Part shown: positions 3,344 to 39,007 of the stretch, one piece after another | Position numbering within the stretch: the stretch's first letter is position 1 | Layout: every line of letters starts with the position of its first letter | Virus record (IMG/VR): IMGVR_UViG_3300033141_002737 | Coordinates: 1 to 61,862 of that record | Origin: a virus | Taxonomy: Duplodnaviria > Caudoviricetes | Direction: 5' to 3' (one strand) | Length of the DNA stretch: 61,862 bases | Program-made: the position numbers and the translations under genes | Notes under the pieces: generated by a model | What the model saw: only the letters and a program-made list of their open reading frames with translations | Databases searched by the model: none | Told to the model about the DNA's origin: nothing

Positions 3344-3368
3344 AATTTACTCCTTTATATTTCTTTTA

Positions 3369-3805: not shown

Positions 3806-3816
3806 TTTAATTTATT

Positions 3817-3850
3817 CACACTTGTAAAGTAAATAAGTATACTATATAAT
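3817..3850 (+). promoter_or_regulatory. divergent sigma70-type promoter sharing the ACACTTGTAA core
   Basis: TTGTAA 3822-3827, 17 bp, TATAAT 3845-3850. Confidence 0.75.
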
Positions 3851-3856
3851 TAAAAG

Positions 3857-3964
3857 TATATAAACATTAGTCATAAAGACTTCCCCCTTGACCTGGTACA
3901 CAGTTCTAGAACAATTTAATAGTTATCTAAGTAATAATCTTAAATTCTCTTAGATAACTTTTTT
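3857..3964 (+). ncRNA. candidate small RNA (about 108 nt)
   Basis: Bounded by a consensus promoter and an intrinsic terminator; no + strand ORF; C-rich anti-SD-like CTTCCCCCTT. Confidence 0.5.
3921..3964 (+). terminator. intrinsic terminator
   Basis: 11-bp stem AGTTATCTAAG/CTTAGATAACT followed by a T-tract. Confidence 0.7.
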
Positions 3965-4832: not shown

Positions 4833-6170
4833 ATGGATTGGGATTGGAACAATTTAAGTCAAGATGATTCTATTAACGTTTTATTTACTCAAATAATTAG
4901 AAATCCTTTTATCCCTGTAACGCCTACAGAAAAACAATTAGAATTTCTTAGTTGTTTTAATAAAGAGATTCTTTATGGAGGTGCGGCAGGGGGAGGAAAG
5001 TCAGCCGCTTTATTAATGGCTGCTTTAATGTTTGTAACTGTACCTGAATATAGAGCACTATTATTAAGAAGGACTTATGCAGATTTAAGTTTACCTGGAG
5101 CTCTTATAGATTTATCTAAAGAATGGTTAGAGGAAACGGATGCCCATTGGAATGAAATACATAAGCAATGGAAATTTCCATCAGGAGCTACATTAAATTT
5201 TGGATATTTAGATAACGAAAAGGCTAAATATAGGTATTTAGGAGCTCAATTTCATTTTGTAGGATTTGATGAATTAACTCAATTTACAGCATCCCAGTAT
5301 TTATATTTATTTAGTAGGAATAGGAAAATTAAGGGAGTAGATATTCCTTTAAGATTTAGAACAGCCTCTAATCCTGGAGGTATGGGACATGAATGGGTTA
5401 AACAAAGGTTTATAACTGAACGTAAACAAGGACGATTATTTATTCCAGCTAAGTTATTTGATAACCCTCATTTAGATCAAGAATCTTATGAGAAGAATTT
5501 GAATGAATTAGATCCAGTTACTAGGAAGCAATTAAAGGACGGTGATTGGAATGTCGTAGGGGCTGGAAATTTCTTTCAAAGAGATAAATTTAATATGACC
5601 GATGCTTATCCAGTAAAACTTGGAAAGGGTAGAAGTGTTAGGTATTGGGATTTAGCCGCTACAGAATCTAAAGAAGGAACTGATCCTGATTATACAGTAG
5701 GAGTTAAAATAAGAACTATAAAAGGTGAATATTGGGTTGAAGATGTAGTTAGAGGAAGATATAATCCAAGAGATTTAGAGAATGTTATTAGAAGAACTGC
5801 AGAAGAAGATGGAAAGCAGGTTTGTGTCTTTATGGAACAAGAACCTGGAAGTTCTGGAAAGATAACTATTAGTCATTTTGCTAGAAATGTCTTACAAGGA
5901 TTTTCATTTAAAGGATGTAAAACTACAGGAAGTAAAGTAGTAAGAGCTAAACCTTTCAGTGCTGCAGTAGAGAACAGTAATGTTAATATTATAAGAGCAG
6001 CTTGGAACACTAAATTTTTAGAAGAATGTATTGTATTCCCTCAAGAAGGATTTCACGATGATCAGGTAGATGCTGCAAGTGGTGCATTTGAGCAATTAAA
6101 CTTATCTGGAATTGCAGGAGTAGGGACTATTAAAGTTAATAGAGCGAGTAGTATATTAGAAGGATATTAA
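4833..6170 (+). CDS. terL: terminase large subunit
   Basis: Walker A YGGAAGGGKS, Walker B VGFDELTQ, ASNPGG coupling motif, RNase H-like YWDLA...HDDQVDA. Confidence 0.95.
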   Translation: MDWDWNNLSQDDSINVLFTQIIRNPFIPVTPTEKQLEFLSCFNKEILYGGAAGGGKSAALLMAALMFVTVPEYRALLLRRTYADLSLPGALIDLSKEWLEETDAHWNEIHKQWKFPSGATLNFGYLDNEKAKYRYLGAQFHFVGFDELTQFTASQYLYLFSRNRKIKGVDIPLRFRTASNPGGMGHEWVKQRFITERKQGRLFIPAKLFDNPHLDQESYEKNLNELDPVTRKQLKDGDWNVVGAGNFFQRDKFNMTDAYPVKLGKGRSVRYWDLAATESKEGTDPDYTVGVKIRTIKGEYWVEDVVRGRYNPRDLENVIRRTAEEDGKQVCVFMEQEPGSSGKITISHFARNVLQGFSFKGCKTTGSKVVRAKPFSAAVENSNVNIIRAAWNTKFLEECIVFPQEGFHDDQVDAASGAFEQLNLSGIAGVGTIKVNRASSILEGY

Positions 6171-9583: not shown

Positions 9584-11143
9584 ATGTTTAATTTTTTAAA
9601 CAGAAAATCGAATAAGAAATCTAAGGATTTACATAGAAATAATAATAATATATATATTAGTAATGAAATTGCTACAAGAGATAGAGTAGACTTTACCAGT
9701 TTGTTAGGTTATCTTCCAGATCCAGATGAAATATTGCTTAATACTGGAAATACTTTTGATGTATATAGGAAATTAATGGTAGATTCTCAAATTAGAGCTT
9801 GTTCTAATAGTAGAAAGGCTGGTACCAAATCTTTGCTTTGGGATATAGATAAAGGGAAGGAAAATAAATCTAAATATACAAAAATTATAAAAGATTTCTA
9901 TGAACGTGATTTGGATATAGATAGTATGAATGATGCTATACTTAATGCTCCATTATTCGGGTTTCAACCTATTGAAATTATATGGGGTAGAATTGGAGAA
10001 TATATCTTACCTATAGAATTAAAACCAAAGAATCCAGAATGGTTCATGTTTGGCCCTAAAGGAGAATTAAAATTATTAACTCCAGGTAATTTCCTAACTG
10101 GAGAGGATTTACCTCAAAGGAAATTCTTAACGCCTACTTATAACGATATTAATAATAATTATTATAATCCTTATGGAGATAGATTACTTTCTAGTTGTTT
10201 CTGGCCAGCTACATTTAAGAAATCTGGATATAAATGGTGGGTAACATTCACAGAAAAATACGGAATGCCTTATATAATAGGAAAATTACCTGCAGGACAA
10301 GATCAAGAACGTCAAGGAATGTTAGATAATCTAAAAGCTATGGCAATGGATGCGGTAGCAGTTATCTCAGACGACGCTAGTGTAGAAGTCACAGGAATAA
10401 CAGGTTCATCTAATAATGCAGAATTATATAGAACCTTAATTGAATCTTGTGATGCTGCCATAGCTAAGACATTATTAGGACAGACATTAACAACAGAAGG
10501 ATCTGATAAAGGTGTAGGTTCACAAGCTTTAGGAAGAGTTCATTCTGGGATAAGGGATGATATTATACTATCAGATAAGAAATTAGTAGAGAACACACAT
10601 AATAAACTCATTCGTTGGATAGCTGAAATAAATTTCGGAATAGATACAGATCTTCCAAAATTTGAGATGTTTGAAGAAGAAGATGTTGATTTAGATTTAG
10701 CACAAAGAGATAAAATCCTTAAAGATACTGGAGTTAAATTCACAAAATCTTATATAATGAGAACATACGGATTTGAAGAGGATGATATTGAAGAGGTAGA
10801 AAGTGTTCCAGAATCTAAAGATGGGTTTAAACCTGAAGAACCTAATTCAGAGGATAAACTTAAAGAAGATAAAGAGAGTGAATTTGCAGAAAAGGGTGAA
10901 TATTATACAGATCAAATAATTAAGCAATTTTCAGATATTCAATTACAAAGTCAAATAAAAGAAGCCCTTAGTCCTGTGTTTAAGCTAATTAATTCCGCTA
11001 ATGAGTATAATGAAGTGTTAAAAGCATTAGATGGGCTTAATCCGACGATGTCTACTGTAGATATTGAAAAGCACTTAACTAAAGTATTATTTATAGCGGA
11101 ATTACTTGGAAGTAAGGATGCTAGAGATGAGGTAATTAAGTAA
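9584..11143 (+). CDS. portal protein (Mu gp29/DUF935-like)
   Basis: LPDPDEIL, NPYG..LLS..FWP..FK, FTEKYGMP, LLGQTLTT and SQALGRVH motifs. Confidence 0.92.
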   Translation: MFNFLNRKSNKKSKDLHRNNNNIYISNEIATRDRVDFTSLLGYLPDPDEILLNTGNTFDVYRKLMVDSQIRACSNSRKAGTKSLLWDIDKGKENKSKYTKIIKDFYERDLDIDSMNDAILNAPLFGFQPIEIIWGRIGEYILPIELKPKNPEWFMFGPKGELKLLTPGNFLTGEDLPQRKFLTPTYNDINNNYYNPYGDRLLSSCFWPATFKKSGYKWWVTFTEKYGMPYIIGKLPAGQDQERQGMLDNLKAMAMDAVAVISDDASVEVTGITGSSNNAELYRTLIESCDAAIAKTLLGQTLTTEGSDKGVGSQALGRVHSGIRDDIILSDKKLVENTHNKLIRWIAEINFGIDTDLPKFEMFEEEDVDLDLAQRDKILKDTGVKFTKSYIMRTYGFEEDDIEEVESVPESKDGFKPEEPNSEDKLKEDKESEFAEKGEYYTDQIIKQFSDIQLQSQIKEALSPVFKLINSANEYNEVLKALDGLNPTMSTVDIEKHLTKVLFIAELLGSKDARDEVIK

Positions 11144-11144: not shown

Positions 11145-11342
11145 TTATATATTTATTTTTAATAATTTAATTTGATCTAATAACATCTTTACCTGACCGG
11201 CTTTATATAATAAAGCTTCTACATATACAGTAGACTTTCTATTACTATCTATAAATTCAGTTCGTGTTCTTTCATCGACTTGAATTAATTCTTGTTGTAC
11301 AGCTATTAAAAGTTCTTTACAGGCTTCTCGAATTTTATCCAT
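11145..11342 (-). CDS. small hypothetical protein (antisense cassette)
   Basis: ORF track; AAGGAG RBS. Confidence 0.65.
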   Translation of the reverse strand: MDKIREACKELLIAVQQELIQVDERTRTEFIDSNRKSTVYVEALLYKAGQVKMLLDQIKLLKINI

Positions 11343-11355
11343 TTTAAATACTCCT

Positions 11356-11547
11356 TTAATTTAATTCTTGAGAATCAAATTCATATTCTTTGCCCTCTAC
11401 AGGGATAGTACCTGCTTGTACATTTTTTAGAGCTATAGTTTGAGCCAATTGCTTATTGTATCCAGCTACTGTAATTATTTGTTCCTTATAGTAAATATCG
11501 GCTATTACTTTTATTTTGTATTTTTGAGGTTTAGCTAATTTATTCAT
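11356..11547 (-). CDS. small hypothetical protein (antisense cassette)
   Basis: ORF track; AAGGAG RBS. Confidence 0.65.
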   Translation of the reverse strand: MNKLAKPQKYKIKVIADIYYKEQIITVAGYNKQLAQTIALKNVQAGTIPVEGKEYEFDSQELN

Positions 11548-11560
11548 TTAAAATTACTCC

Positions 11561-11704
11561 TTAAAGTATTGAACATAGAACTACTATACAACCTATGAAT
11601 ATTGTATATACTAAAATTAAAAACATTATAAAACCCATATTGCATGCAGCATCTTTTAAATCATCAAAAAATTCTATAAGTTTAATGTTTAAGGGTTTAT
11701 TCAT
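11561..11704 (-). CDS. small membrane protein (47 aa)
   Basis: Hand translation; AAAGGAG RBS; C-terminal hydrophobic helix. Confidence 0.55.
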   Translation of the reverse strand: MNKPLNIKLIEFFDDLKDAACNMGFIMFLILVYTIFIGCIVVLCSIL

Positions 11705-11716
11705 ATATTACTCCTT

Positions 11717-11905
11717 TCAATTATTTAATCCAATAATTTTTTCATAATATTTACAAATTTGTTTTCTTTGGGTTACTTTCTTTCCTGTTAATTTACATTC
11801 AGATTTATTATAAGGTTGAGTGTATACAAGAAAAAAATATGGATCATAATATTTACAATCTTTGCATATAGGTTCTTTATTAGTTATCCTATCATTTATT
11901 TTCAT
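11717..11905 (-). CDS. small Cys-rich protein (CxxC...C...C)
   Basis: ORF track 11717..11956; ATG at 11905 overlaps the upstream gene end and is the likelier start. Confidence 0.55.
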   Translation of the reverse strand: MKINDRITNKEPICKDCKYYDPYFFLVYTQPYNKSECKLTGKKVTQRKQICKYYEKIIGLNN

Positions 11906-12020
11906 AAACATTCCATTCCTTCCAATATGGACATTCAGTATTATTACATAGTTCACAATTCCAAGTAGCTGAATGATATTTAGATTCGGCTTCTATAGGT
12001 TTAGGGATACAATCATTCAT
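11892..12020 (-). CDS. small Cys-rich protein (42 aa, ...WNCELCNNTECPYW...)
   Basis: Hand translation; AAGGTGG RBS; tiles between its neighbours. Confidence 0.5.
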   Translation of the reverse strand: MNDCIPKPIEAESKYHSATWNCELCNNTECPYWKEWNVYENK

Positions 12021-12507
12021 TATTCAACCACCTTATATTTCGTATTCGCTGCTCATTATCTATATAAGATTCTCGATTAGGTATTTTAATTCCTTCATTT
12101 AATTTACGTATTACAATTATAGATAACTTACACTTATCCTTTAAGGCACTAAATTCGTTATTATAACAACCTTCACATTTATAATTTCTTTGATAACAAT
12201 GTAATTCAGATTCCAAAAGATAATCCCGCTTAAATGAGGTGATATTTCCAAATCTTGAATCCAGTCTAGTATTCCAATCCTTTACAAATTCATCTGGATT
12301 ATTAATTACTATACAAGTTCTTATATAATACTTTTGGCGTAATTTATCATAACAGGGTAATTTAATTAAGCTCTTATATTTAGCGTATAAAGCTTTATTT
12401 AATATGGTGCGCATATAACTAGGAGCATTTCGAATTAAAGTTTTGAAATACATTTTTTCAAAATATCCTTGAGATATAAAATCATTTACAGTTAAATTTT
12501 CAATCAT
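12013..12507 (-). CDS. hypothetical protein with C-terminal Cys cluster (CY...CEGC...C)
   Basis: ORF track. Confidence 0.65.
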   Translation of the reverse strand: MIENLTVNDFISQGYFEKMYFKTLIRNAPSYMRTILNKALYAKYKSLIKLPCYDKLRQKYYIRTCIVINNPDEFVKDWNTRLDSRFGNITSFKRDYLLESELHCYQRNYKCEGCYNNEFSALKDKCKLSIIVIRKLNEGIKIPNRESYIDNEQRIRNIRWLNNE

Positions 12508-12524
12508 AATTAAAATTAATCCTT

Positions 12525-12779
12525 TTATAGTACAAGAGAAGAATAATCAAAATCCTTATGTAAAATATTATTTATTAATATGCGTTCTAATGAATGGGAT
12601 GATCTATCTAAAGAGAACATAGGTAAGTGTCTAATATAGTCCATATTAAAATCATTATTTCTAAGAATCATTAATGCTTGTCGTCTTTTACAATTTAAGT
12701 AAGAATTTGATTTTAATTTCTTACAATTTGAATTACAATAAGTATTGCAAAAATGTTTACCTTCTATATCAATACTCAT
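12525..12779 (-). CDS. small Cys-rich hypothetical protein
   Basis: ORF track; CxxxCxxxC...C. Confidence 0.6.
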   Translation of the reverse strand: MSIDIEGKHFCNTYCNSNCKKLKSNSYLNCKRRQALMILRNNDFNMDYIRHLPMFSLDRSSHSLERILINNILHKDFDYSSLVL

Positions 12780-12803
12780 AAATAGAATTTTCCTTTAATT
12801 TAT

Positions 12804-12950
12804 TTAATCTTGAGCGAAGTGTATATCATTCTCTAGCATAAGAATATAATTTTTTATTAATCCTTTTTGTATTTTATTATCTTCACTAAGAAGACTTAAT
12901 TTTTGCTCTTCAATCATTGCTCTTAATGTTGATTTTTTTAATTTATACAT
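12804..12950 (-). CDS. first gene of the cassette (48 aa, MYKLKKSTLRAMIEEQ...)
   Basis: Hand translation; AAAGGA RBS directly behind promoter copy 3. Confidence 0.55.
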   Translation of the reverse strand: MYKLKKSTLRAMIEEQKLSLLSEDNKIQKGLIKNYILMLENDIHFAQD

Positions 12951-12982
12951 TTTTATGTTTCCTTTGTTTAACTTATATTTTA

Positions 12983-13034
12983 ATTATAAATTATAAAATT
13001 GTATTTTACAAGTGTTTTATTACGAGTTATTAAG
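12983..13034 (-). promoter_or_regulatory. repeated early promoter element, copy 3
   Basis: TTGTAA 13011-13006, 17 bp, TATAAT 12988-12983. Confidence 0.85.
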
Positions 13035-13057
13035 TTTAATTTATAAAGGTATAATAA

Positions 13058-14320: not shown

Positions 14321-15655
14321 ATGCCATACACAATAACTAATTTACCCTCTCAAGCTAAAGGGTTAACAGAGGATCAAAAGAAAAAATTTGTAGATATAGT
14401 TAACGCCTTATTAAAGGAGGATATGGAAGAAGGAAAAGCAATAGCTGTAGCACTTTCTAGGGCTAAACAACCTAGAGCTTATCGTAATCAGAGAACGAAT
14501 ATGTCAGAATTCTTTGAAAATCAGTGGGTTGAGGTTTTTAGTGTAGGAGAACAAACTGATGCTAATGGAAATACTCGAGAATGGACAGATGCTGATTTAA
14601 ATAAGATTGTATCTAATTATAAAACAAATAAGCACGAGGCGCCTTTAGTTGTAGGGCATCCAAAAGAAAATGCGCCTGCATTTGGCTGGGTGGAAGAACT
14701 TAAAACCGATGGAAAATTATTATTTGCTAAATTTAGGCAATTAGTTCCTGAGTTTGTAGATGCAGTTAAACAAGGAATGTATAAAAAGCGTTCAATAAGT
14801 TTATATCCTGATTTAACATTAAGGCATATAGGCTTTTTAGGCGCAGTTCCACCGGCTGTTAAGGGGTTGGCTGATATAAAGTTTAAAGAACAAATAGAAT
14901 CTATAATAATAGAGTTTAATGAATTAAATAATGAAAAAGGAGACATTGACATGACAGAAGAACAAATCAAAGAATTATTAAAAGAGGCTCTTAAAGTGCA
15001 AAAAGAAACTTTAGATAGTGAATTTGCAGAGCAGTTTAAAAAATTAGAGGAGGCTAATACTAAACTTTCCGATGAGTTAGATACATTTAAAGAAAAGAAA
15101 GCCAATACACCTAATTTAAAACCCGAAGACAAAAAACCTGAAGATAAAGATTTTGAAAATTTAAAACTTAATCAAGATGAGTTCAAAGAAGCTTCAGTTA
15201 AGGTAGCTATAGAATTAGCGGAATTAAAGAAAGATAACACTTTTCTTATTGCTCAAAACAAGGCCACTGAATTAAAGAATAGAGTTAGCGAATATAAAGA
15301 GTTTGTGAATGAATTACATTCTAATGGTAAAATTGTTTCAGATACTCAATCTGAAATTGTAGATTTGATGGAAGCTTTGCATCAACTTGGAGAAGTTAAT
15401 TTTGCAGAAGGAAAAGAAAATGCTTTGACTAAATTTAAGGAATATCTTAATAAGCAACCTAAATTAGTGGAATTTGAGGAAAAGGCAAATAAACCAAAAG
15501 TTTTAGATACTAAATCCGCTGATTTTCAACTTAATAAATTAGCCGAAGAGAAGGTTAAAGCTAATGAGGGTATGAGTTTCACAGAAGCTTTAGGACAAGT
15601 GCAGGAAGAAAATCCAGAACTTGCTCAAAGATTAGTAGTTGAAATTGACAGTTAA
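14321..15655 (+). CDS. prohead protease/scaffold (Mu gpI-like) with N-terminal ChaB-like extension
   Basis: APLVVGHP, PAFGWV, YKKRSISL and HIGFLGAVPPAVKGL motifs; coiled-coil C-terminal half. Confidence 0.88.
   Translation: MPYTITNLPSQAKGLTEDQKKKFVDIVNALLKEDMEEGKAIAVALSRAKQPRAYRNQRTNMSEFFENQWVEVFSVGEQTDANGNTREWTDADLNKIVSNYKTNKHEAPLVVGHPKENAPAFGWVEELKTDGKLLFAKFRQLVPEFVDAVKQGMYKKRSISLYPDLTLRHIGFLGAVPPAVKGLADIKFKEQIESIIIEFNELNNEKGDIDMTEEQIKELLKEALKVQKETLDSEFAEQFKKLEEANTKLSDELDTFKEKKANTPNLKPEDKKPEDKDFENLKLNQDEFKEASVKVAIELAELKKDNTFLIAQNKATELKNRVSEYKEFVNELHSNGKIVSDTQSEIVDLMEALHQLGEVNFAEGKENALTKFKEYLNKQPKLVEFEEKANKPKVLDTKSADFQLNKLAEEKVKANEGMSFTEALGQVQEENPELAQRLVVEIDS
14951..15655 (+). CDS. scaffold protein from an in-frame internal start (Mu gpZ-like)
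   Basis: AAAGGAG then ATG at 14951, in frame with the protease. Confidence 0.65.
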   Translation: MTEEQIKELLKEALKVQKETLDSEFAEQFKKLEEANTKLSDELDTFKEKKANTPNLKPEDKKPEDKDFENLKLNQDEFKEASVKVAIELAELKKDNTFLIAQNKATELKNRVSEYKEFVNELHSNGKIVSDTQSEIVDLMEALHQLGEVNFAEGKENALTKFKEYLNKQPKLVEFEEKANKPKVLDTKSADFQLNKLAEEKVKANEGMSFTEALGQVQEENPELAQRLVVEIDS

Positions 15656-16520: not shown

Positions 16521-17522
16521 ATGCCAACAGCAAAATCAATTGTCACAGCAAGTTCTTTAAAGAACGCATCAATTCATTACTCTAGTCCTGAGTTTATAGC
16601 AGGACAAGTATTTCCAATTCTTAAGGCTAATGACCCTACAATGAAAATCACTAAATACTTAGCAGCTGATTATTTTAGAAATGACGCTGGAGTAAGGGGT
16701 GAGGGTGGTGAAGCTAGAAGAGGCGGATTTAAAACCACCGAACAAACCTATAAATGCTTAGAAACTGCTTATGCGGTTCCTATTACAGATGAATTAAGAC
16801 GAAATGCTAGAAAGCAGTCATCTCAACCTTTGCAGCCTGATATTGAAGCTATAGAATTAGCTAAACGGAAGGTGCTTTTAAAAAGAGAATCAGAAGTATC
16901 TTCATTAGTAACTACAGGAATTTGGGCAGACGGTGCTGCAGGTGGATCAGATGCCGCAGGTGCGTGGTTAGCTTCCGCTGGAACTAATACATTTAAAATA
17001 GACATCAAAGCGGGTTTACAAGCTTTAAGAGCTAGAGGTATTGTATCTGGAGGAAATTTAGAAATAAGATTGCTTCTTGATGATTTAACTTTTGATGAAA
17101 TTATTGAAATTGCAGCTATAAGGGATCAAATTAAATATACTTCGGATAAATCAGTTACTCCAGAAATACTTGCTAGAATTTTAAAAATAGACAAAGTTAT
17201 CGTTCCATCTATTATTGAAAATACAGCCAAAGAAACTAAAGCAGGAACGGAATTTACAGCTAGTCGACTCTGGAGAATTAACGCCGATAAAGGAATGGCT
17301 TTATTATATGCTTATCCAAAACGTTTGGGGCTAAAAATGATGACAGCGGGCCTCATTGTTAATGATAAATTTGATTCTAGCGAAGGCGGTGGCTATGATA
17401 GATTAATGAAATTTAGAGAACCTGGTAATCATCAAGATGTTTATGAAGCTGCTGAAATGCGTGATCAACTTCAAATCTGCGCAGAAGCCGCTTATATGTG
17501 GAAAGATACTATTGCAACTTAA
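16521..17522 (+). CDS. major capsid protein
   Basis: 333 aa, position, FIAGQVFP motif, strong RBS. Confidence 0.8.
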   Translation: MPTAKSIVTASSLKNASIHYSSPEFIAGQVFPILKANDPTMKITKYLAADYFRNDAGVRGEGGEARRGGFKTTEQTYKCLETAYAVPITDELRRNARKQSSQPLQPDIEAIELAKRKVLLKRESEVSSLVTTGIWADGAAGGSDAAGAWLASAGTNTFKIDIKAGLQALRARGIVSGGNLEIRLLLDDLTFDEIIEIAAIRDQIKYTSDKSVTPEILARILKIDKVIVPSIIENTAKETKAGTEFTASRLWRINADKGMALLYAYPKRLGLKMMTAGLIVNDKFDSSEGGGYDRLMKFREPGNHQDVYEAAEMRDQLQICAEAAYMWKDTIAT

Positions 17523-20181: not shown

Positions 20182-22428
20182 ATGGTAAACAAAGATGTAA
20201 ATATAAAAATTCTGTTTGATGGTAAGCAATTTACAGACGGAATTGGCAAGGCTCAAAAATCTCTAAAGGCCTTTAAAGACGTAGGGAAAAGGATGGCAAT
20301 TGCAGGAGCTGCAATGGGAGTAGCTCTTGGTGGAGTTGTTAAGATTGCAGGAGATTTTGAAAAAAGTATGTCGAGAGTCCGAGCACTTTCTGGGGCTAAT
20401 ACCACAGAATTTAATTCCTTAAGTCAAGCTGCTAGAGATCTTGGAAAATCTACTGTATTTAGTGCATCAGAAGCTGCTGAAGGTATGTCTTATTTAGCTA
20501 TGGCAGGTTATAATACTTCAGAAATTATAGCAGCTATGCCTGGATTATTAGATGGCGCTGCAGCCGGACAACTTGAATTAGGTAGAACTGCGGATATAAC
20601 TTCTAATATTTTATCAGGTTTTGGAATAGAAGCTAATAAAACTAATGAAGTCATGGATGTTTTAACTGCTACATTTACATCTAGTAATACAACTATGGAA
20701 GAATTAGGAGATACAATGAAATTTGTAGCTCCTGTTGCAAAGGCTGCTGGAATCTCTTTAGAACAAACCGCAGCTGCAGCTGGAATTATGGCAAATGCGG
20801 GTATCAAAGGAGGTATGGCTGGGAGACAATTAAGAAGTATGATAGTTAGATTAATTGCTCCTCCTAAAGATGCTGCGGATGCAATTAATGAATTAGGATT
20901 ATCTATAACAGATGAAGCTGGTAAAATGAGACCTTTAGCTGATATTATAACTCAAACTAAGGTTGCAATGGAAGGTATGAGTGATTCACAAAAAACAGCT
21001 ATGGCGGCTTCTATAGCTGGGAGGGAGGCTGTAAGTGGATTCTTATCTTTATTAGGGGCAGGTGGTCCAGCTATTGCTAACTATACCAAAGAGTTAGAAA
21101 ATAGTGCAGGAGTTGCTAAAAAAATTGCAGCTGTTCAAACGGATAATTTAGGAGGTTCATTCGTAAAATTAAAAAGTGCTTTAATGGAAGCTGCTATTGC
21201 AATAGGTACGGCTTTAATTCCTGCAATTAGATCATTAGTAGATTTAGTTAAAGGCTGGGTTGATTGGTTTAATAAATTATCAGAACCCACAAAAGCCATA
21301 ATAGCTAAAATAGCGGCTTTGACAGCTGTCCTATTATTAGTAGTTGGTCCCTTATTATTTATTATTGGAAGTATTCCCGTTATATTAGCAGGAATAGGAG
21401 CTGTAACTGCTGTAATAGGTGCTATTATAGCTGTAGCTTCTGGAATTGGTCCGTTAATATGGCTTATTATAGCTGCAGGAATAGCTCTTGTAGCAAATTG
21501 GGATAAAATTAAAGCAGCAGCTATAGCTGTATGGGAGAAGGGTATTGCCCAATCAATAGCAGATTTATTAAAGAAATTTCCTGAATGGATAAATCAAATA
21601 AAAGGTAAAGCAATTGAAATAGGAAAAGCCTTAGTTCAAGGTATTATAACAGGTATTAAAAATATGGCTTCTTGGCTTAAGAATAATTTAAAAGATTGGG
21701 CTGGTGGAGTTATAACGGAAATTAAACGACAGTTTCAAATCAAATCTCCTTCTAAAATTACAGAAAAAATTGGAAAAAATTTAGTTGAAGGGCTAAATGT
21801 AGGAATATCTAATACAGCCGTTAATTATTCATTTCTCACAGATTTAGTAAACATTACTAATGAAGCTACTAATCAATTATCAGATACTATAACAAGTAAT
21901 TTAAGTGGTAGCATTGCAGGTGTATTAGATGGCTCAAAGTCTGTAGGTGAAGGTATAAAAGGATTTTTCAGGGGCGTTCAGCAATCTATAATTAAAATGG
22001 TGGCTGATATGATAGCAGAAATGATGAAATTATATGTTATTAAACCAATGCTTCAAAGTATATTTTCAGGCTTATCTGGATTTGGCGGAGGTACGGGCGG
22101 AGGTTTAATGCAGGGTATAGGAGGAATAGCTAAGGCGTTTGGTGGATTCTTTGCCGAGGGTGGAAGTCCTCCACTTGGAAAAGCTTCTATTGTAGGAGAA
22201 CGAGGACCAGAATTATTTGTCCCTAAACAATCTGGAACTATAATTCCAAATGGAGCTACAGGAGGACAATCTAATCCTACCTATGTATATGCACCTAATA
22301 TTCAAACTTCCGCTTCAAAAGAAGAAGTATTCGGAATTTTAGATAAACATAGTAGAGAATTTTTTAATCGGATACAAATTGGATTTCAAAATAATCATGG
22401 TTTACGATCTACACTTAAGAGTACATAA
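20182..22428 (+). CDS. tape measure protein (TP901 family)
   Basis: FEKSMSRV, STVFSASEAAEGMSYLAMAG and C-terminal VGERGPELFVP motifs. Confidence 0.95.
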   Translation: MVNKDVNIKILFDGKQFTDGIGKAQKSLKAFKDVGKRMAIAGAAMGVALGGVVKIAGDFEKSMSRVRALSGANTTEFNSLSQAARDLGKSTVFSASEAAEGMSYLAMAGYNTSEIIAAMPGLLDGAAAGQLELGRTADITSNILSGFGIEANKTNEVMDVLTATFTSSNTTMEELGDTMKFVAPVAKAAGISLEQTAAAAGIMANAGIKGGMAGRQLRSMIVRLIAPPKDAADAINELGLSITDEAGKMRPLADIITQTKVAMEGMSDSQKTAMAASIAGREAVSGFLSLLGAGGPAIANYTKELENSAGVAKKIAAVQTDNLGGSFVKLKSALMEAAIAIGTALIPAIRSLVDLVKGWVDWFNKLSEPTKAIIAKIAALTAVLLLVVGPLLFIIGSIPVILAGIGAVTAVIGAIIAVASGIGPLIWLIIAAGIALVANWDKIKAAAIAVWEKGIAQSIADLLKKFPEWINQIKGKAIEIGKALVQGIITGIKNMASWLKNNLKDWAGGVITEIKRQFQIKSPSKITEKIGKNLVEGLNVGISNTAVNYSFLTDLVNITNEATNQLSDTITSNLSGSIAGVLDGSKSVGEGIKGFFRGVQQSIIKMVADMIAEMMKLYVIKPMLQSIFSGLSGFGGGTGGGLMQGIGGIAKAFGGFFAEGGSPPLGKASIVGERGPELFVPKQSGTIIPNGATGGQSNPTYVYAPNIQTSASKEEVFGILDKHSREFFNRIQIGFQNNHGLRSTLKST

Positions 22429-22430
22429 GT

Positions 22431-22805
22431 ATGACAGCCACATTCATATATCAGCATAAAAAAGCATATAAAGTTAGCTCAACTTGGAAAACTATAGTTG
22501 ATGATATAGTATCCGGAGGAGAGCAAAGACGTAATATCTGGAGTACTTCTAAGAAAAAGTGGGTATTAGAATTTGATAAAGATTCGACAGATGTTGATGC
22601 TATACTTACATTTTTTGATGCTCGAAAAGGACGATTTGAAGCTTTTTATTGGGAGTGGCAAGCTACTCATCCCGATACTGGAAAGAATATAGGAGGGGAT
22701 GGAAATACTTATTTAGTAAGATTTGAGGATGATGAATTAAATATGAAACATTTATCTATAGGATATAAACATTTTCAAATAACTCTTGTTGAAGTATTAA
22801 CATAA
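22431..22805 (+). CDS. distal tail protein (DUF2460 / gpM-like)
   Basis: SGGEQRR, FFDARKGRFEAF and VRFEDD motifs; follows the tape measure gene. Confidence 0.75.
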   Translation: MTATFIYQHKKAYKVSSTWKTIVDDIVSGGEQRRNIWSTSKKKWVLEFDKDSTDVDAILTFFDARKGRFEAFYWEWQATHPDTGKNIGGDGNTYLVRFEDDELNMKHLSIGYKHFQITLVEVLT

Positions 22806-22831
22806 AAAAGCTAGGAATTTAATCCTAGCTT
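22804..22831 (-). terminator. intrinsic terminator of an antisense cassette
   Basis: AAGCTAGGA/TCCTAGCTT stem; T-tract on the minus strand only. Confidence 0.75.
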
Positions 22832-22851
22832 ACTTAATTACATAGTTAGTA

Positions 22852-23031
22852 TTAATTATTTAATTTTTTAAGTTCTGCATTTATAAATATATTAATTCTT
22901 CTATTTAGCTCTATAAATTTTTTACTATTTTCATCCTTCTTTTTTATATTTTGTATAATAAAATCCAATGCTTCTAAACTTTGGTTCATTCTTGCAGCGG
23001 GGTGTAATGCGTCTACTGTTTCTTTATTCAT
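22852..23031 (-). CDS. single cassette gene (59 aa, MNKETVDALHPAARMNQSLEALDFII...)
   Basis: Hand translation; AAAGGAG RBS behind promoter copy 4. Confidence 0.7.
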   Translation of the reverse strand: MNKETVDALHPAARMNQSLEALDFIIQNIKKKDENSKKFIELNRRINIFINAELKKLNN

Positions 23032-23062
23032 CTTGTGTCTCCTTTATTTAACTTATATATTT

Positions 23063-23114
23063 ATTATACAGTATAAAATTCAATTTTACAAGTGTTTTAT
23101 TAAGAATTATTAAA
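23063..23114 (-). promoter_or_regulatory. repeated early promoter element, copy 4
   Basis: TTGTAA 23091-23086, 17 bp, TATAAT 23068-23063. Confidence 0.85.
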
Positions 23115-23136
23115 TTTAATTTATAAAGGTAAGATT

Positions 23137-23913
23137 ATGTCTAAAGGGTTATCAACAGGGCAATTAGCTTTAATTCAAGCCGCTGAAGTTAAAACTCGAA
23201 TATTATTAACAATCACATTTAATAATTATATAGTGGGTATACAACTTGAAGATGGATCTGGAAATTTAGTTCTTGAGACTAAGGATGATTTAGAACTTGA
23301 AACGGAAGTAATCGAATTACTTGAGAATGATACTTTAGGATCTCTCACAGTAGCAGATAAATTATATTTAGCCGCTGCTGTAAAAAGAGGTTCAATTGAA
23401 AGTCAAATAGAAGGAGGAAAACAAAAAGTTGCAATTACTTTAAGTAATATTGATAAAATTTATAGTAATATTATAGCAGATAAAGGAGATATCTTAACAA
23501 ATGCCCGATGCAAAATAGAAGAAGTAATATTCATACCTCCCCTTTTAGATGTAATTTATTTAGAGGATGAAAGCGGAAATTTAATTTTAGAAAATGGGGA
23601 TAATTTCTCCCAAGAAAATAATTCTATTTTTGGAGATAGAGTTAATATATTCGAAGGATTTGTTAATAATGTAACGGTTACTCCAAAAGTATTTAGCTTC
23701 GATGTCGAAAGAATACTTGGAGGATATTCAACTCAAAGTCCTAATACCACTTATGATGTAAGTTGTCAATGGGTGTTTAAGGATAGTCGTTGTCAATATT
23801 CAGGTAATGAATCTACTTGTGATAAAACACTCACAGCTTGTCAAGCTCGTAACAATTCTAATAGATTTGGTGGATATCCAAGTATTCCTAGAGAATTAGT
23901 TATTAGGAGCTAA
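23137..23913 (+). CDS. tail tip/hub protein (lambda gpL / DUF2163-like, Fe-S Cys cluster)
   Basis: CQWVFKDSRC...CDKTLTAC...RFGGYPSIP. Confidence 0.8.
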   Translation: MSKGLSTGQLALIQAAEVKTRILLTITFNNYIVGIQLEDGSGNLVLETKDDLELETEVIELLENDTLGSLTVADKLYLAAAVKRGSIESQIEGGKQKVAITLSNIDKIYSNIIADKGDILTNARCKIEEVIFIPPLLDVIYLEDESGNLILENGDNFSQENNSIFGDRVNIFEGFVNNVTVTPKVFSFDVERILGGYSTQSPNTTYDVSCQWVFKDSRCQYSGNESTCDKTLTACQARNNSNRFGGYPSIPRELVIRS

Positions 23914-23989
23914 AAGGCTAGAAATTTAATTTTAGCTTTAGTAATAAGATTTCAGTGGTTATTATTTAATTTTATTAAGTTTTTCAAAT

Positions 23990-24151
23990 TTAAAGGTTAT
24001 CTCCTTCTTCATATGATATAATTTCAAATTTATTACATATATTAGCATCGTAATGGAATTTCATTATTTTTTTAGCTTCTTTATAAGTTTTACAAACTTT
24101 AGATAAATTACAAATATTTTCGCCTTCATAGTGACCTAAAACCATTAACAT
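23990..24151 (-). CDS. single cassette gene (53 aa, MLMVLGHYEGENICNLSKVCKTYKEAKK...)
   Basis: Hand translation; AAAAGGAG RBS behind promoter copy 5. Confidence 0.7.
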   Translation of the reverse strand: MLMVLGHYEGENICNLSKVCKTYKEAKKIMKFHYDANICNKFEIISYEEGDNL

Positions 24152-24183
24152 TTGTAGACTCCTTTTGTTTATCCTATATTTTA

Positions 24184-24235
24184 AGTATACAGTATAGAAT
24201 TTAGTTTTACAAGTGTTTTATTAAGAATTATTAAG
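24184..24235 (-). promoter_or_regulatory. repeated early promoter element, copy 5
   Basis: TTGTAA 24212-24207, 17 bp, TATACT 24189-24184. Confidence 0.85.
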
Positions 24236-24247
24236 ATGAGTTTTTAA

Positions 24248-24577
24248 ATGAATTTAGATATTTTACATAAACATATAGGAAAATCTAATAAAGAATTAGA
24301 TTGCTTATTTCCAATTTATTTACTTTATCCTGAATTACCTAAATATGATATAAATCAAGATAAAACTTATGTATATGAATCTATCTTAAAACATTGCAAT
24401 AAAGTAGATAATTTAAGATTAGGGGATTTAATTCTATTTAAGTTTTTAAATGGATATCATTTTGGAATTTATGCAGGAAAAGGTAATTTTTTCCACTATT
24501 TAAGACACGGTAATTTAAGATTAACTAATTTAAGAAGATATATAAAATATATAGAAGGGTACTTTAGAAAATGGTAA
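24248..24577 (+). CDS. NlpC/P60-like tail-tip protein (gpK-like)
   Basis: LDC...GDLILF...HFGIYAG...FFH. Confidence 0.75.
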   Translation: MNLDILHKHIGKSNKELDCLFPIYLLYPELPKYDINQDKTYVYESILKHCNKVDNLRLGDLILFKFLNGYHFGIYAGKGNFFHYLRHGNLRLTNLRRYIKYIEGYFRKW

Positions 24578-27396
24578 CTGCAACAATAGCCGTATTAGCA
24601 GCTGCTGCTTCATTTGCTGCTGCTGCAATGCCTTATATAATGTTAGGATTATCTATTTACTCAATGGTAGATGGATTAACTAATAAAGGTAAATCTTCTT
24701 TGAATAATAGTATGTATGGAGGAACTGGAAGTCCTACTTATGGATTCGGACCTTTACAGACTCAAACTTCAAACTTGTTAGCTCGTCCTATAGTATATGG
24801 AAAAGTAAAGTGCGCTGGTAACAAGATATGGCAAAGTGGAGAAAATACTTCTACAGTCAAACAACTTATATTATTTTCAGATGGAGAAATTTATGGTTAT
24901 GAGGATATTAAATTTAATAATGAAGATTATTCAAGCCTTTCTGGATGTAGTGTAAGCAGATATTATGGAGATGGGGTTCAAGTTATTGATAGCCGAGTAA
25001 GTGGAGATACTGAAGAAGATCAAGCAGAAATTGTTGGAGGACTTAAATATGATGCCTATTTAGCTATAACTGCCCAGGCTTCGGATAAAATAACTAATTC
25101 AGGTTTTAATGTTACTGCTATAGTAAGTGGGCGTAAAATATTATATTATGATTATTATACCGAAGAAGAAGATCCAAGTTTGCCTTTTAATATCCTTTCA
25201 GGAGAAATAATAGATTTAGAAAAGGAAATAACTTTATACAATGGGCGTACTGGTGCCAAATATGTAGAATATTTTTGGAGTCCTGAATTTGAATATACTA
25301 CAGTATATGGACAGAAATTTGATATTACAAAATTATTTTCAGTGTGGAAGGAGGCTTCCGAATATAGTATTAAAGAATTTATGGTAGTTAACCCTAATGA
25401 TATAAGCTCTTTAATAGAATTAGGAGAATTTAATCCATCTGAATTAAAATATATTCATGGTGTTAGTATAAGAGAGGACAATTTATATTTAACTGGAGTT
25501 GATGCTAGCTATAATAGAAAAATCATTCAATATTCATTATCTAATCCATATGATTTACTTAAAATAAGTCCACTTTTTATTAGAGAAGCTCCTATAAGTT
25601 ATAGTGCAAGTTTATATATATCTAAAGACAGAGTACATGCATTCGCAATAGAAAATAGTGGGAATAGGACTCTATACCACTACAAAATGACTACTCCAGG
25701 AGATATTTCAACATTATATCAATATCAAACAAAAAATTTACCTACTACAGGTAATTCAAATGTAACTTCGAATTTTACATTTAGTGATGATGGTAAAATA
25801 TTCATATGCACGGATAATAATACAGGAGCTTCTCCTGTATTATCTCAATTTAGTATGGAAACTGGTTGGGATATAGCTAATTGGGTAGAAGATGATTATG
25901 CATCGTTTGAGGAATATTTTGACCCAAGTGTTGATGATTTTCAATCTGTAGTATTTAATGATGAAGGTCGTTCTTTTATTCCAGTTATTAATACTAGAAC
26001 AGCTGAATACGATGAACAACTTCTTCATCAATTTATCACCGGAGCTACAACCTTATCAAGTGTAGGTTATAATAGTAATCCTGCTTGGTGCATTTATGAT
26101 TTTCTTACTTATTATAATGGAATTAATCTAAGTATTAATGAATTAGATCTGCAAAGTTTTTATGATGCTGCCGCTTATTGTGATGTAGATGTAGAGGGAC
26201 AAGTAAGATTCTCTCTTAATCTTATTTTAGATACTAAAAAATCAAGACATGATTGGCTTAGTGCTATGTTATTGGTGTGTCGAGGATATTTAGTATATAT
26301 AGATGGAAAACTTCATCTTAAGATAGATCAAGCTGGAAGTAGTGAACAAAGTTTCACTACCTCAAATATAATTACAGATTCTGAAAAATTATGGACTACT
26401 CCTAGAGAAAATAAATATGATATAGTTAAGGTTCAATTTATTGATCCTGATAATGAATGGGCTAGAATTTATGCTGTAGCTGAATTAACTACTTATAATA
26501 ATGAACAACCTATTATTAAGGAAGTGGAAGCTTTTGGAATCACTAATTTTAAACAAGCCTCTCGTTTAGCTTGGTTTTATCTCAATGAGGCTACTATTAC
26601 AAATAAATTCATATCTTTCGATACTACTAAAGAAGGATTGGATAGAACAGTAGGAGATTTGATTGATATAACTTTAGATACTTTCGGATATACTTCAAAA
26701 ATATTTAGAATCACTAGTTTATCTGAAGAAGAAGAGGGTCAAATAAAAATAATAGCTAAAGAATATAATGAGATTTTATATAATGACACCCAAGGTAGTA
26801 TAACTCCTACATATACCCCTATTGTAGAAGAAGATGATGAAGATTTTGGGCAGGTAAGTGCTGGAAGTGGTAGTTATATTGAAACTATTAATTCTAATAT
26901 TGTAGAAGAAGCTGGATTAGAAATAACTTCAGTTATCCCATTTGACGGAACTACGCCTCAAATAGGAGAGGGTACTGAAATATTATCATTTCTGTATACT
27001 CCAAATAATTCAGAATCTACTATTAAATTTGAATGTGTAGTTCCTTCTATATATACAGATGCCGCTACCACAGTTAGTTTAGCATTATTTAAAGATTCAG
27101 TTTGTATAGGAGCTACAAGCATAAATCTTTCACAAACCGGGTCTACGGAAGGATATTCTATAACATTAGATAAAACTATTACATTATCAACTATGGATTT
27201 ATTTTCATTGTCTTTACGAATAGGAGTAGATAGTGCAGGACCTACTATCATGATAGGGAATAAATTTGGACCTTCTGGAATTCCTTATATAACTATTATA
27301 GAAACTAAGTACATTGAAAATCCTGATTATTTATATATAGAAGATCTTTCAGGACGTATAATATTAGAAACAGATAATTTATTAAGATTGGAGTAA
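24571..27396 (+). CDS. central tail fibre/host-specificity protein (gpI/gpJ-like)
   Basis: PIVYGKVK.AGN, SNPAWCIYDFL, QASRLA and GDLIDIT motifs. Confidence 0.85.
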   Translation: MVTATIAVLAAAASFAAAAMPYIMLGLSIYSMVDGLTNKGKSSLNNSMYGGTGSPTYGFGPLQTQTSNLLARPIVYGKVKCAGNKIWQSGENTSTVKQLILFSDGEIYGYEDIKFNNEDYSSLSGCSVSRYYGDGVQVIDSRVSGDTEEDQAEIVGGLKYDAYLAITAQASDKITNSGFNVTAIVSGRKILYYDYYTEEEDPSLPFNILSGEIIDLEKEITLYNGRTGAKYVEYFWSPEFEYTTVYGQKFDITKLFSVWKEASEYSIKEFMVVNPNDISSLIELGEFNPSELKYIHGVSIREDNLYLTGVDASYNRKIIQYSLSNPYDLLKISPLFIREAPISYSASLYISKDRVHAFAIENSGNRTLYHYKMTTPGDISTLYQYQTKNLPTTGNSNVTSNFTFSDDGKIFICTDNNTGASPVLSQFSMETGWDIANWVEDDYASFEEYFDPSVDDFQSVVFNDEGRSFIPVINTRTAEYDEQLLHQFITGATTLSSVGYNSNPAWCIYDFLTYYNGINLSINELDLQSFYDAAAYCDVDVEGQVRFSLNLILDTKKSRHDWLSAMLLVCRGYLVYIDGKLHLKIDQAGSSEQSFTTSNIITDSEKLWTTPRENKYDIVKVQFIDPDNEWARIYAVAELTTYNNEQPIIKEVEAFGITNFKQASRLAWFYLNEATITNKFISFDTTKEGLDRTVGDLIDITLDTFGYTSKIFRITSLSEEEEGQIKIIAKEYNEILYNDTQGSITPTYTPIVEEDDEDFGQVSAGSGSYIETINSNIVEEAGLEITSVIPFDGTTPQIGEGTEILSFLYTPNNSESTIKFECVVPSIYTDAATTVSLALFKDSVCIGATSINLSQTGSTEGYSITLDKTITLSTMDLFSLSLRIGVDSAGPTIMIGNKFGPSGIPYITIIETKYIENPDYLYIEDLSGRIILETDNLLRLE

Positions 27397-29452: not shown

Positions 29453-29504
29453 CTTAATAATTCTTAATAAAACACTTGTAAAATACAGTTTTATAATATA
29501 TAAT
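29453..29504 (+). promoter_or_regulatory. repeated early promoter element, copy 6 (heads the replication region)
   Basis: CTTAATAATTCTTAATAAAACAC-TTGTAA(29476-29481)-17bp-TATAAT(29499-29504). Confidence 0.88.
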
Positions 29505-38317: not shown

Positions 38318-39007
38318 ATGTCGAAACTAAAAGGTAAAAAATTTGTTTATGTAGGTACCAGTAGACCTGAATGGGTGGATGAGCAGGTTGAAGTAATTAG
38401 GGCAACTCTACAAAGTGTGACCGTGAAGTTTTCAGATGATAGTGAAGCTAAAGTTGCTTTGGCAGCATTTAAAAGAGATTTTGAAGAAGATCTTGCAGAA
38501 GAAGAGGATAACCAAGAAGAACAAGAACAAGAAGAAGAAGGACAAGAAGAAGAACAAGAAGAAGAAGAAGATAAACAAGAAGATAAACAAGAAGAAGAAG
38601 TTAAGTCGTCTAAGAAAGTTACTAAAAAAGAACCGAAACCTAAAAAAGAATCTAAATCTAAAAAAGAACCGAAACCCAAAAAAGATTACTCTAAAATAAG
38701 AGAAGAACTTATAAAATACTGTGAAAAGCAAAAATTTAGCTTAACAGAAAATCAACAATATGTAGGTATAAAGGATGAACAAAATTATGGCGCAATTGTA
38801 TTAACTAAATTCGGAGCTATTAGGGTAAAAAATATAGCTTTAGAGGGGTCTAGCTATGAAGCAGATAAATGGATTACGGGGACATACGATGCACAATTTT
38901 CTATGGATCGAGATATTAAAGAACTTATAGAAATTATTGAATTAGGTATAAAATTTTCTAATAAGTGTGTTGTTAAAACAGTTTCTAATAAGGATAAAAC
39001 TAAATAG
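38318..39007 (+). CDS. hypothetical protein with an acidic E/Q tract and KEPK repeats
   Basis: ORF track; AAAAGGAG RBS; own promoter. Confidence 0.7.
   Translation: MSKLKGKKFVYVGTSRPEWVDEQVEVIRATLQSVTVKFSDDSEAKVALAAFKRDFEEDLAEEEDNQEEQEQEEEGQEEEQEEEEDKQEDKQEEEVKSSKKVTKKEPKPKKESKSKKEPKPKKDYSKIREELIKYCEKQKFSLTENQQYVGIKDEQNYGAIVLTKFGAIRVKNIALEGSSYEADKWITGTYDAQFSMDRDIKELIEIIELGIKFSNKCVVKTVSNKDKTK

Follow-up and report, generated by a model that had tools for sequence, protein, structure and literature searches.

The DNA stretch described here, called the window in what follows, is the whole of the IMG/VR record IMGVR_UViG_3300033141_002737, a complete virus genome of 61,862 bases with a GC content of ~28%. 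Within its plus-strand tail-tip region, two short intervals on either side of the tail gene L each carry a single gene on the minus strand. We refer to these intervals as cassette 1 and cassette 2, and to their genes as cargo 1 and cargo 2. Cassette 1 (22806-23136, 331 nt) fills the entire gap between genes M and L (the M|L junction) from stop codon to start codon, and cassette 2 (23914-24247, 334 nt) fills the gap between L and gene K (the L|K junction) in the same way. Neither contains a plus-strand open reading frame (ORF) of 30 amino acids (aa) or more. These boundaries confirm the initial annotation, which had described two antisense single-gene intervals of ~330 bp flanking a tail-tip gene. 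The common layout that it had proposed, namely hairpin, ORF, ribosome-binding site and promoter, holds in part: the ORF, the ribosome-binding site and the predicted promoter are found in both cassettes, but the cassette 2 hairpin is unstable on the minus strand. In both, a 17-nt spacer separates the -35 box from the -10 box. The parts of the two cassettes are as follows.

22808-22831, minus strand: cassette 1 hairpin, a predicted intrinsic terminator with a 9-bp stem, a 6-nt loop and a T run (terminator scan; folding).
22832-22880, minus strand: left-flank segment common to both cassettes, here spanning the final 8 codons of the 59-aa ORF and its 3′ untranslated region (UTR) (alignment).
22852-23031, minus strand: cargo 1, a 59-aa ORFan (ORF list).
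23039-23044, minus strand: Shine-Dalgarno of cargo 1, AAGGAG, placed 7 nt ahead of its ATG (read from the sequence; the leader is conserved in the module alignment).
23063-23113, minus strand: predicted promoter of cassette 1, with -10 TATAAT at 23063-23068, -35 TTGTAA at 23086-23091 and a distal element reaching to 23113 (promoter scan, 10/12).
23114-23136, plus strand: promoter-distal end of cassette 1, which gives the L gene its ribosome-binding stretch and is common with the module copy at 13004.
23916-23938, strand not assigned: hairpin copy of cassette 2, degenerate on the minus strand, with 8 pairs including G-U on the plus strand.
23961-23989, minus strand: untranslated relic past the cargo 2 stop, aligning to the last codons of cargo 1 (alignment).
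23990-24151, minus strand: cargo 2, a 53-aa protein (ORF list).
24159-24164, minus strand: Shine-Dalgarno of cargo 2, AAGGAG, placed 7 nt ahead of its ATG (read from the sequence; module alignment).
24184-24234, minus strand: predicted promoter of cassette 2, with -10 TATACT at 24184-24189, -35 TTGTAA at 24207-24212 and a distal element reaching to 24234 (exact 30-nt core; module alignment).

The similarity between the two cassettes was assessed by comparing alignment scores with those of 2000 dinucleotide-preserving shuffles. The left flanks including the hairpin score 56, compared with 21.5 ± 3.8 for the shuffles (z-score 9.0), and no shuffle reaches this value. Without the hairpin, the remaining gene-tip segment scores 36 against 20.1 ± 3.5 (z 4.5, reached by 3 shuffles). 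The right flanks score 103 against 22.2 ± 3.8 (z 21, 0 shuffles), and the cargo interiors score 21 against 21.6 ± 3.4 (z -0.2, 1141 shuffles). These scores indicate that the flanks of the two cassettes are homologous and that their cargo is unrelated, and two statements of the initial annotation, that the left ends align and that the cargo ORFs are unrelated, are borne out by them. The flank homology ends exactly at the stop and start codons of the adjoining tail genes. Past the cargo 2 stop, ~25 nt align to the last 8 codons of the cargo 1 ORF with a 1-nt indel. The 3′ tip of the first cargo gene had been suspected to be kept downstream of the cassette 2 stop, and the alignment (3 of 2000 shuffles, as above) agrees with this. 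Such a relic of cargo 1 codons in cassette 2 fits a cargo swap within an existing scaffold.

The two hairpins differ in stability. On the minus strand, the cassette 1 hairpin folds with -14.9 kcal/mol (z -3.7), and none of 200 shuffles folds as well, while the cassette 2 hairpin reaches only -4.8 kcal/mol (z -0.16), which is equalled by 84 of 200 shuffles. On the plus strand, the 8 pairs of the cassette 2 hairpin lie within a fold of -13.3 kcal/mol (z -1.8, 11 of 200 shuffles). On the plus strand, no T run follows either hairpin. There is no third copy of the hairpin in the window, and no other unit of the genome ends in the hairpin or in the adjoining ~45 nt. The left flank (hairpin plus ~45 nt) is thus private to the two cassettes within this genome. 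A private 3′ module that carries a coding relic is real evidence that the cassettes are related by descent or exchange.

The right flank belongs to a wider repeat family. Its 30-nt core, which covers the -35 box and the sequence upstream, occurs 7 times in the genome at 3 mismatches or fewer, compared with 0 occurrences expected. The core sits in a ~100-nt repeat made of a distal A/T element, the -35 TTGTAA, a 17-nt spacer, a -10 of TATAAT or TATACT, a conserved leader and AAGGAG, and the distal A/T element contains a 14-nt near-palindrome. Copies are located at 2926, 3775, 13004, 23053-23117, 24205, 29454 and 61241. Six of them face left, heading the two cassettes and the small-ORF units 60313-61190, 2616-2783, 2942-3545 and 11145-12950; the seventh (core 29454-29483, plus strand) faces right and heads the replication module, whose genes start from 29538. 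The ORFs behind the module copies have no family matches. A probable, diverged eighth copy lies at ~3818 (repeat family D11), back-to-back with the copy at 3775 and facing the structural genes. These back-to-back boxes at 3775-3866 suggest that all transcription units of the phage may use a single promoter type. The right flank is therefore the general promoter module of the phage, one of 7 copies (plus the probable eighth), and nothing special to the pair; for this side, the initial idea of a conserved flank pair is not supported in the form given.

One further copy, nearer to the cassette 1 module than that of cassette 2 is, lies among the structural genes.

12953-13051, minus strand: sister copy of the module, heading an antisense block (11145-12950, 1.9 kb) whose small ORFs separate the portal gene from the head genes.

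This copy is 88% identical to 23033-23131 of cassette 1 (repeat family D1). Over 120 nt, the cassette 1 module has 78% identity with the copy at 13004 and 69% with the cassette 2 module. Inspected by eye, cassette 1 is of the 13004 type in its promoter-distal part, from which L takes its ribosome-binding stretch, and cassette 2 is of the 61241 type there, with a distal 10 nt that is identical to the 61241 copy and unlike cassette 1. Also by eye, a signature in the spacer and -10 box is common to both cassettes and missing from the other five copies. By these comparisons the cassette scaffolds are mosaics, and their mixed affinities mean that a simple duplication of a whole cassette is not the most economical history. 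Beside this sister copy, the antisense block in the structural module (11145-13057) contains about seven minus-strand ORFs of 48-164 aa without family matches, and the promoter-distal end of the copy at 13004 also provides the ribosome-binding stretch of a plus-strand gene at 13058.

The promoter module resembles promoters of the probable host. We found 57 homologues of the L protein, mostly in genomes labelled Gastranaerophilales or Melainabacteria, with 53 loci in genome contigs, and the host of the phage is most likely a member of the Gastranaerophilales (Melainabacteria). When cassette 1 was compared by blastn with 401 genomes of the class, the best matches fell only on its promoter part, with 77-82% identity over ~60 nt and expect values (E) down to 7e-9 per genome; none covers the hairpin. 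We inspected 25 of these host loci (L239-L243 and L248-L267). At least 11 of the 25 lie directly upstream of a gene for a sigma-70 family protein of ~300 aa (7 assigned via Pfam, with regions 1.2, 2, 3 and 4 in varied combinations, and 4 via likeness to those 7), two lie upstream of rimP, and one lies upstream of a pilin-like gene. Seven phage promoters and 14 host promoters can be aligned without gaps and share one register, from a 16-nt distal element through the -35 box and the spacing to the -10 box. This likeness supports the view that the flank is a real promoter for the host polymerase, that the host is melainabacterial, and that sequence constraint keeps the copies alike. We regard the distal element as a candidate for a promoter or operator element specific to the lineage and taken up by the phage, and the near-palindrome in it suggests a possible operator in place of a simple UP element. 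In the five genomes that hold relatives, a 15-nt stretch of the motif showed no enrichment (1-7 matches, compared with 2-5 for the reversed control). As a by-product, these alignments point to a conserved promoter architecture of the Melainabacteria, with a 16-nt element beside the -35 box, upstream of sigma-70-factor and rimP genes; to our knowledge, genetics is lacking for this group. All transcription units of the phage appear to use this adopted, host-type promoter, a further argument for the assigned host.

We next consider the cargo. The annotated frame has the best codon usage of all six in both ORFs, with 0.21 bits/codon for cargo 1 (next best 0.10) and 0.18 bits/codon for cargo 2 (next best -0.11). 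At this base composition, the chance of an open frame is 0.003 for 59 codons and 0.005 for 53 codons. For cargo 1, the sole match among 5.8 billion proteins is cargo 1 itself, and no homologue above chance was found in that set, in a protein atlas or in the 401 class genomes. Cargo 2 has one homologue, P0060 (49 aa, 66% identical, E 3.5e-11, among 1.84 billion representatives), which is encoded on a single 5.2-kb ENA contig. A scan of viral contigs for P0060 gave no match, and another protein search with cargo 2 returned only itself. A second cargo 2 match (556 aa, 34% identity, with repeats) looks like an unrelated repeat protein and was rejected. Neither cargo protein has a match above noise in Pfam, PHROGs or NCBIfam; the noise-level families that scored best are F-box (E 0.011) and phrog_29670 (E 0.082), both for cargo 2. 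The protein atlas returned no usable match for cargo 1, and 0.88-level leads for cargo 2 only. Searching the 401 class genomes with cargo 1 and with a cargo 2 profile gave hits in 4 and 5 genomes, respectively, at E 0.004-0.01 per genome, which is chance level, and cargo 2 is absent from the five relative-holding genomes. No paralogue of either cargo was found in the window. A match of cargo 1 to the 65-aa ORF 11145-11342 (E 0.028 in a 341-ORF database without composition correction) was judged to be a low-complexity match.

AlphaFold models (AF2, single sequence) suggest a two-helix hairpin for cargo 1, with a predicted local distance difference test score (pLDDT) of 83, and a beta-beta-alpha-beta unit for cargo 2 (pLDDT 80). 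The best fold match of cargo 1 in BFVD has an E of 3.3. For cargo 2, Foldseek against the PDB gave a best E of 1.7 (a T7 Gp2 complex), BFVD gave an uncharacterised phage protein at E 0.018, and the VIA wide fold search gave a best Z of 5.2; all these matches are at the level of common small folds. Judging from their size, promoter and position, we would guess that the cargo proteins are early host-interaction or anti-defence factors.

To compare the two junctions among relatives, the M, L, K and J proteins were searched by tblastn on 80 related loci from genome and viral contigs. Of these, 20 are close, with an L identity of at least 40%; as L092 nearly duplicates L039, and L098 and L047 are identical, the close loci number 18 distinct ones. 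The M|L gap of these 18 is 8 nt or less in 13, 79 nt in one, and 523-1929 nt in four (L039, L042, L043 and L044). At L|K, 10 of the 16 evaluable close loci have a gap of ~40 nt or less, and six have 129-807 nt (L038, L042, L043, L044, L047 and L086). None of the 38 more distant loci has more than 100 nt between its M and L matches. Three of the four M|L insertions and all six at L|K run on the minus strand, and the inserted cargo includes ParE with a Phd-like antitoxin, a nucleotidyltransferase (MNT) with HEPN, ORF6N, a secreted-looking 168-aa protein and several unknowns. At L|K of L086 (1326-1454), there is a 28-codon relic of the 84-aa membrane-type gene that occupies L|K of L043 (2437-2691), which shows junction cargo decaying, or being lost, in place. 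These comparisons indicate that M|L and L|K are recurrent insertion hot spots for accessory genes.

Three relatives show further variation. The 1.9-kb insertion at M|L of the Melainabacteria contig L039 (2072-4000) carries four plus-strand ORFs (139, 235, 131 and 77 aa), is the only same-strand cargo at these junctions, and contains a duplicate of a short C-terminal segment of the 235-aa ORF at 3617-3700. In the viral contig L091 (4772-4950), L is not followed by a K homologue, and a J-like match begins 177 nt on, at 48% GC; K may have been lost or replaced there. The L homologue of L099 (902-1863) is ~320 aa long and carries repeated Thr/Gly-rich motifs in an internal insertion of ~100 residues; inserts can thus also enter the L protein.

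Searches beyond these loci covered phage records and contigs. Neither blastn of 22400-24600 nor tblastn of the L protein matched any of 50,697 phage records, and a pattern scan for the L protein in viral contigs gave 34 stretches, none of which was confirmed. An 18-mer of the promoter was found at 30 loci in viral contigs, one match each, and a 19-mer at 116 or more loci in metagenome contigs, again one match each among the 80 listed. We compared 142 promoter-core matches over 102 flanking positions. They agree at 52 of 102 positions at best (median 40), compared with 50-76 among the phage's own copies, and were set aside as chance or unrelated; the top matches are a family of near-identical sequences unlike the phage module.

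The remainder of the genome supplies the context of the cassettes. An exact direct repeat of 114 bases at both ends (1-114 and 61749-61862) means that the record is circularly closed or terminally redundant and represents a complete genome. The phage has a complete genome of 61.7 kb, of siphovirus type, with a lambda-like tail tip and its own replisome. The tail-tip genes follow the tape measure in the order M-L-K-J known from lambda and RcGTA-like tails, as assigned by Pfam and PHROG, and the order is the same in relatives. The principal genes are as follows.

4833-6170, plus strand: large terminase.
9584-11143, plus strand: portal.
14321-15655, plus strand: head protease.
16521-17522, plus strand: major head protein.
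20182-22428, plus strand: tape measure (ORF list).
22431-22805, plus strand: M, a lambda gpM-like / DUF2460 tail-tip gene, 124 aa (Pfam DUF2460, E 6.7e-13); its stop codon abuts cassette 1.
23137-23913, plus strand: L, a lambda gpL-like / BR0599-like gene, 258 aa (Pfam Phage_tail_L and Phage_BR0599; PHROG 778), which separates the two cassettes.
24248-24577, plus strand: K, a gpK-like NlpC/P60 gene, 109 aa (Pfam NLPC_P60, E 2.1e-8), which begins directly after cassette 2.
24571-27396, plus strand: J, a gpJ-like gene (Phage-tail_3; ~23% identity to 'central tail fiber J' genes).

Homologues of M in relatives are 59-69% identical and stand beside L homologues. The replication module on the plus strand from 29538 encodes helicases, a Toprim primase, a DNA polymerase, a sliding clamp, a clamp loader, RecA and NrdD, and the phage encodes both RecA and an exonuclease. 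No tyrosine or serine recombinase (PF00589 and PF00239) was found in the complete genome, with positive controls in 14 of 14 and 12 of 14 genomes, respectively. No sigma-factor region 2 was found in the complete phage genome, and no tRNA gene in the window. Rfam gave nothing at the gathering threshold across the window, and nothing at E up to 1 over 22700-24350. A search for T7-type RNA polymerase families gave no match, and its positive control gave no match either. Elsewhere in the genome, a GAA-rich run of 9-18-nt repeats at 38470-38690 lies within ORF 38318-39007 and encodes an acidic, lysine-rich low-complexity segment.

Taken with the anatomy of the cassettes, the flank homology, the junction hot spots and the likeness to host promoters, which we observe directly, the most suitable reading in our opinion is that the cassettes are probably two moron-type, autonomous antisense units at recurrent hot spots, built from the standard promoter of the phage and a shared 3′ module, with cargo that could be exchanged by homologous recombination. 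Each interval would be an autonomous, monocistronic antisense transcription unit at M|L or L|K. Host RNA polymerase would start at the modules, as expected from a module that copies the architecture of host sigma-70-factor and rimP promoters. Expression would probably be early, because the same module heads the replication genes. Unit 1 would stop at its terminator just past the M stop codon without entering gene M, and unit 2 would carry a decayed copy of the unit 1 hairpin. Late plus-strand transcription would read through both, because neither hairpin has a plus-strand T run. Since the repeated promoter module and the shared 3′ module provide homology on both sides of the ORF, the cargo should be exchangeable by homologous recombination, and such an exchange between standard regulatory modules, by analogy with known phage cassettes, is plausible. 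The phage RecA and exonuclease would serve it, as has been proposed for the promoter-early stem-loop (PeSL) cassettes discussed below. M|L and L|K would then be permissive sites that are refilled repeatedly with other accessory genes in related phages. In this reading, transcription, its timing, the function of the cargo proteins and the recombination between flanks that would have led to the present arrangement are all inferred.

Several points weigh against this reading. The promoters, the terminator and the timing are predictions. The cassette 2 hairpin is unstable on its own strand; unit 2 may read into the antisense of gene L, or the hairpins may instead serve the plus-strand late mRNA. 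The GC content of the cassettes is 21%, compared with 32% in M and 31% in L, a contrast usual in morons, but K likewise has 21%, so the low value is weak evidence of foreign origin. For cargo 1, which lacks a homologue, it is the frame statistics and the ribosome-binding site that speak for a protein gene. In the three relatives in which both junctions are filled, the two cassettes of one genome have no flank homology (z -0.6 to 3.1), while the cassettes of the window reach z 9.5 and 21.9 in the same test. Shared flanks are thus particular to this phage and go with its uniform promoter module, and the system of which the cassette had been called the minimal unit is not one general to the lineage. 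These flanks turned up in no second genome, the left flank and hairpin having been scanned only inside larger blastn queries, and cargo exchange by recombination is therefore not observed.

How the two cassettes came to share their flanks can be explained in different ways. One possible history, which we hold tentatively and consider somewhat doubtful, is that a whole cassette was duplicated to the neighbouring junction and its ORF was then replaced within the conserved flanks, leaving the old 3′ tip behind. The confinement of the left flank to these two cassettes, the relic of the last cargo 1 codons in the cassette 2 3′ UTR and the spacer/-10 signature that the other five promoter copies lack all argue for it. 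However, the cassette 1 module has more identity with the 13004 copy (78%) than with that of cassette 2 (69%), cassette 2 matches the 61241 copy and not cassette 1 in its promoter-distal 10 nt, and such mosaic scaffolds need extra gene-conversion events or separate assembly. The initial annotation had proposed this very sequence of duplication and cargo replacement; the flank homology, the unrelated cargo and the relic speak for it, but its right flank has turned out to be general and its scaffolds mosaic. With only two copies at ~75% identity, the direction and order of events, that is, duplication or separate assembly, are irrecoverable.

Alternatively, the cassettes may result from two independent insertions that used the ubiquitous promoter module and a common type of terminator, each cargo being acquired separately, for example from other units of this phage or of a co-infecting one. 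The flank likeness would then reflect shared regulatory parts. The 7-8 module copies before differing cargo, the functional constraint on the module that is visible in its likeness to host promoters, and the independent filling of the same junctions in relatives are consistent with this history. Nevertheless, we regard it as rather unlikely, as the left-flank homology reaches ~45 nt past the hairpin into sequence without obvious function, and no other unit of the genome ends in this hairpin.

A role at the level of RNA or transcription, in which the hairpins stabilise or process the late plus-strand mRNA, the convergent strong promoters damp the low-copy tail-tip genes L, K and J, and the ORFs are incidental, is quite improbable. 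Both hairpins start 2-3 nt past a plus-strand stop codon. Between the two copies, one stem pair changes from G-C to A-U and a second is G-U on the plus strand but A-C on the minus strand, so the plus-strand fold is the better kept; two variable stem positions in two copies make this covariation argument very thin, however, and there is no Rfam family match. Moreover, both ORFs are preceded by strong ribosome-binding sites, score best for codon usage in their own frame and have lengths improbable by chance, cargo 2 has a conserved homologue, and relatives cope with tight M-L-K junctions. Finally, an integron-type, site-specific cassette system with the hairpins as recombination sites would account for single-gene units with unrelated cargo bounded by an imperfect palindrome, but is hardly credible in a complete genome without tyrosine or serine recombinase (controls as above) in which each cassette has its own promoter and only two hairpin copies exist, with no array.

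Returning to the moron-type reading, a bolder form of it would be a PeSL-like 'plug-in slot' system outside the T4 group, in which a single module, taken from the promoter of the host's sigma-factor gene or convergent on it, stands before every unit and, together with a shared 3′ module, provides portable homology for exchanging small early genes in insulated slots, antisense to the tail-tip genes. Defence and counter-defence genes of Melainabacteria phages in general would then settle at these junctions by preference. We consider this form speculative and unlikely to hold in full. In practical terms, the M|L and L|K junctions are a place to seek defence and anti-defence genes in Melainabacteria phages. 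The most novel part may be the promoter module, which mirrors the promoter of host sigma-factor genes and may double as a recombination handle.

The cassettes can be compared with several known systems. Morons, as far as the description in PMC3594210 goes, are extra genes between genes that are adjacent in related phages, with their own promoter and terminator and with a GC content unlike that of their neighbours; one example is the HK97 gene 15 element in the tail operon of a lambdoid phage (PMC3594210). The cassettes similarly are extra DNA (331 and 334 nt) within a tail operon, between genes that are adjacent in relatives. Both have their own predicted promoter, and cassette 1 has a canonical predicted terminator, while cassette 2 has an unstable hairpin. 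Unlike morons, both lie antisense to the operon, have the promoter module that the phage repeats across its own genome, not a foreign one, and share a 3′ flank. In addition, no integrase was detected, which makes a prophage state doubtful and expression from a repressed prophage, the classical rationale for morons, unlikely. The cassettes therefore have the structure by which morons are defined, except for the doubtful prophage state and the use of the phage's own promoter.

PeSL cassettes are described from T4-type myoviruses (PMC2839356, PMC4122927). As presented in PMC2839356, the ~100-nt motif contains a sigma-70-type early promoter with an A/T-rich upstream part, ends at the Shine-Dalgarno and start codon, includes a stem-loop terminator, and occurs in ~50 copies, mostly before ORFans; it was proposed to act as portable homology for the modular shuffling of the flanked ORFs by homologous recombination (PMC2839356). 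The module of this phage is likewise a repeated ~100-nt sigma-70-type promoter with an A/T-rich upstream part, which runs through the Shine-Dalgarno and start codon and stands before ORFans. It differs in having 7-8 copies instead of ~50, with the stem-loop in only two of them, and the ORF stands between promoter and hairpin, which are ~230 nt apart, so that there is no composite element. The genome is of siphovirus type and not T4-like, and the insertions are antisense within the virion module. For T4-type sister genomes, mini-circles are described, as are insertions, deletions or replacements that break within the motif, whereas a single genome is compared here. The cassettes thus work like PeSL cassettes but are not members of that group.

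Integron cassettes are promoterless single-ORF units bounded by attC, arrayed beside an integrase of the tyrosine recombinase family. The present cassettes resemble them in being single-ORF units with unrelated cargo and an imperfect palindrome at the boundary, but there is no integrase and no attC-type array, and each unit has its own promoter. The lack of a recombinase and the presence of own promoters exclude an integron-type system. The nearest parallel in position is given by the accessory hot spots of Gastranaerophilales (pro)phages, which use the same two junctions and hold mostly antisense cargo; the paired cassettes of those relatives lack shared flanks, whereas the pair in the window shares them. 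The cassettes are therefore of a kind already known, a variant of the phage moron and promoter-cassette theme, and they extend promoter-plus-terminator cassettes, as expression units and recombination handles, from T4-type phages to a siphovirus with a lambda-type tail tip from an uncultured phylum.

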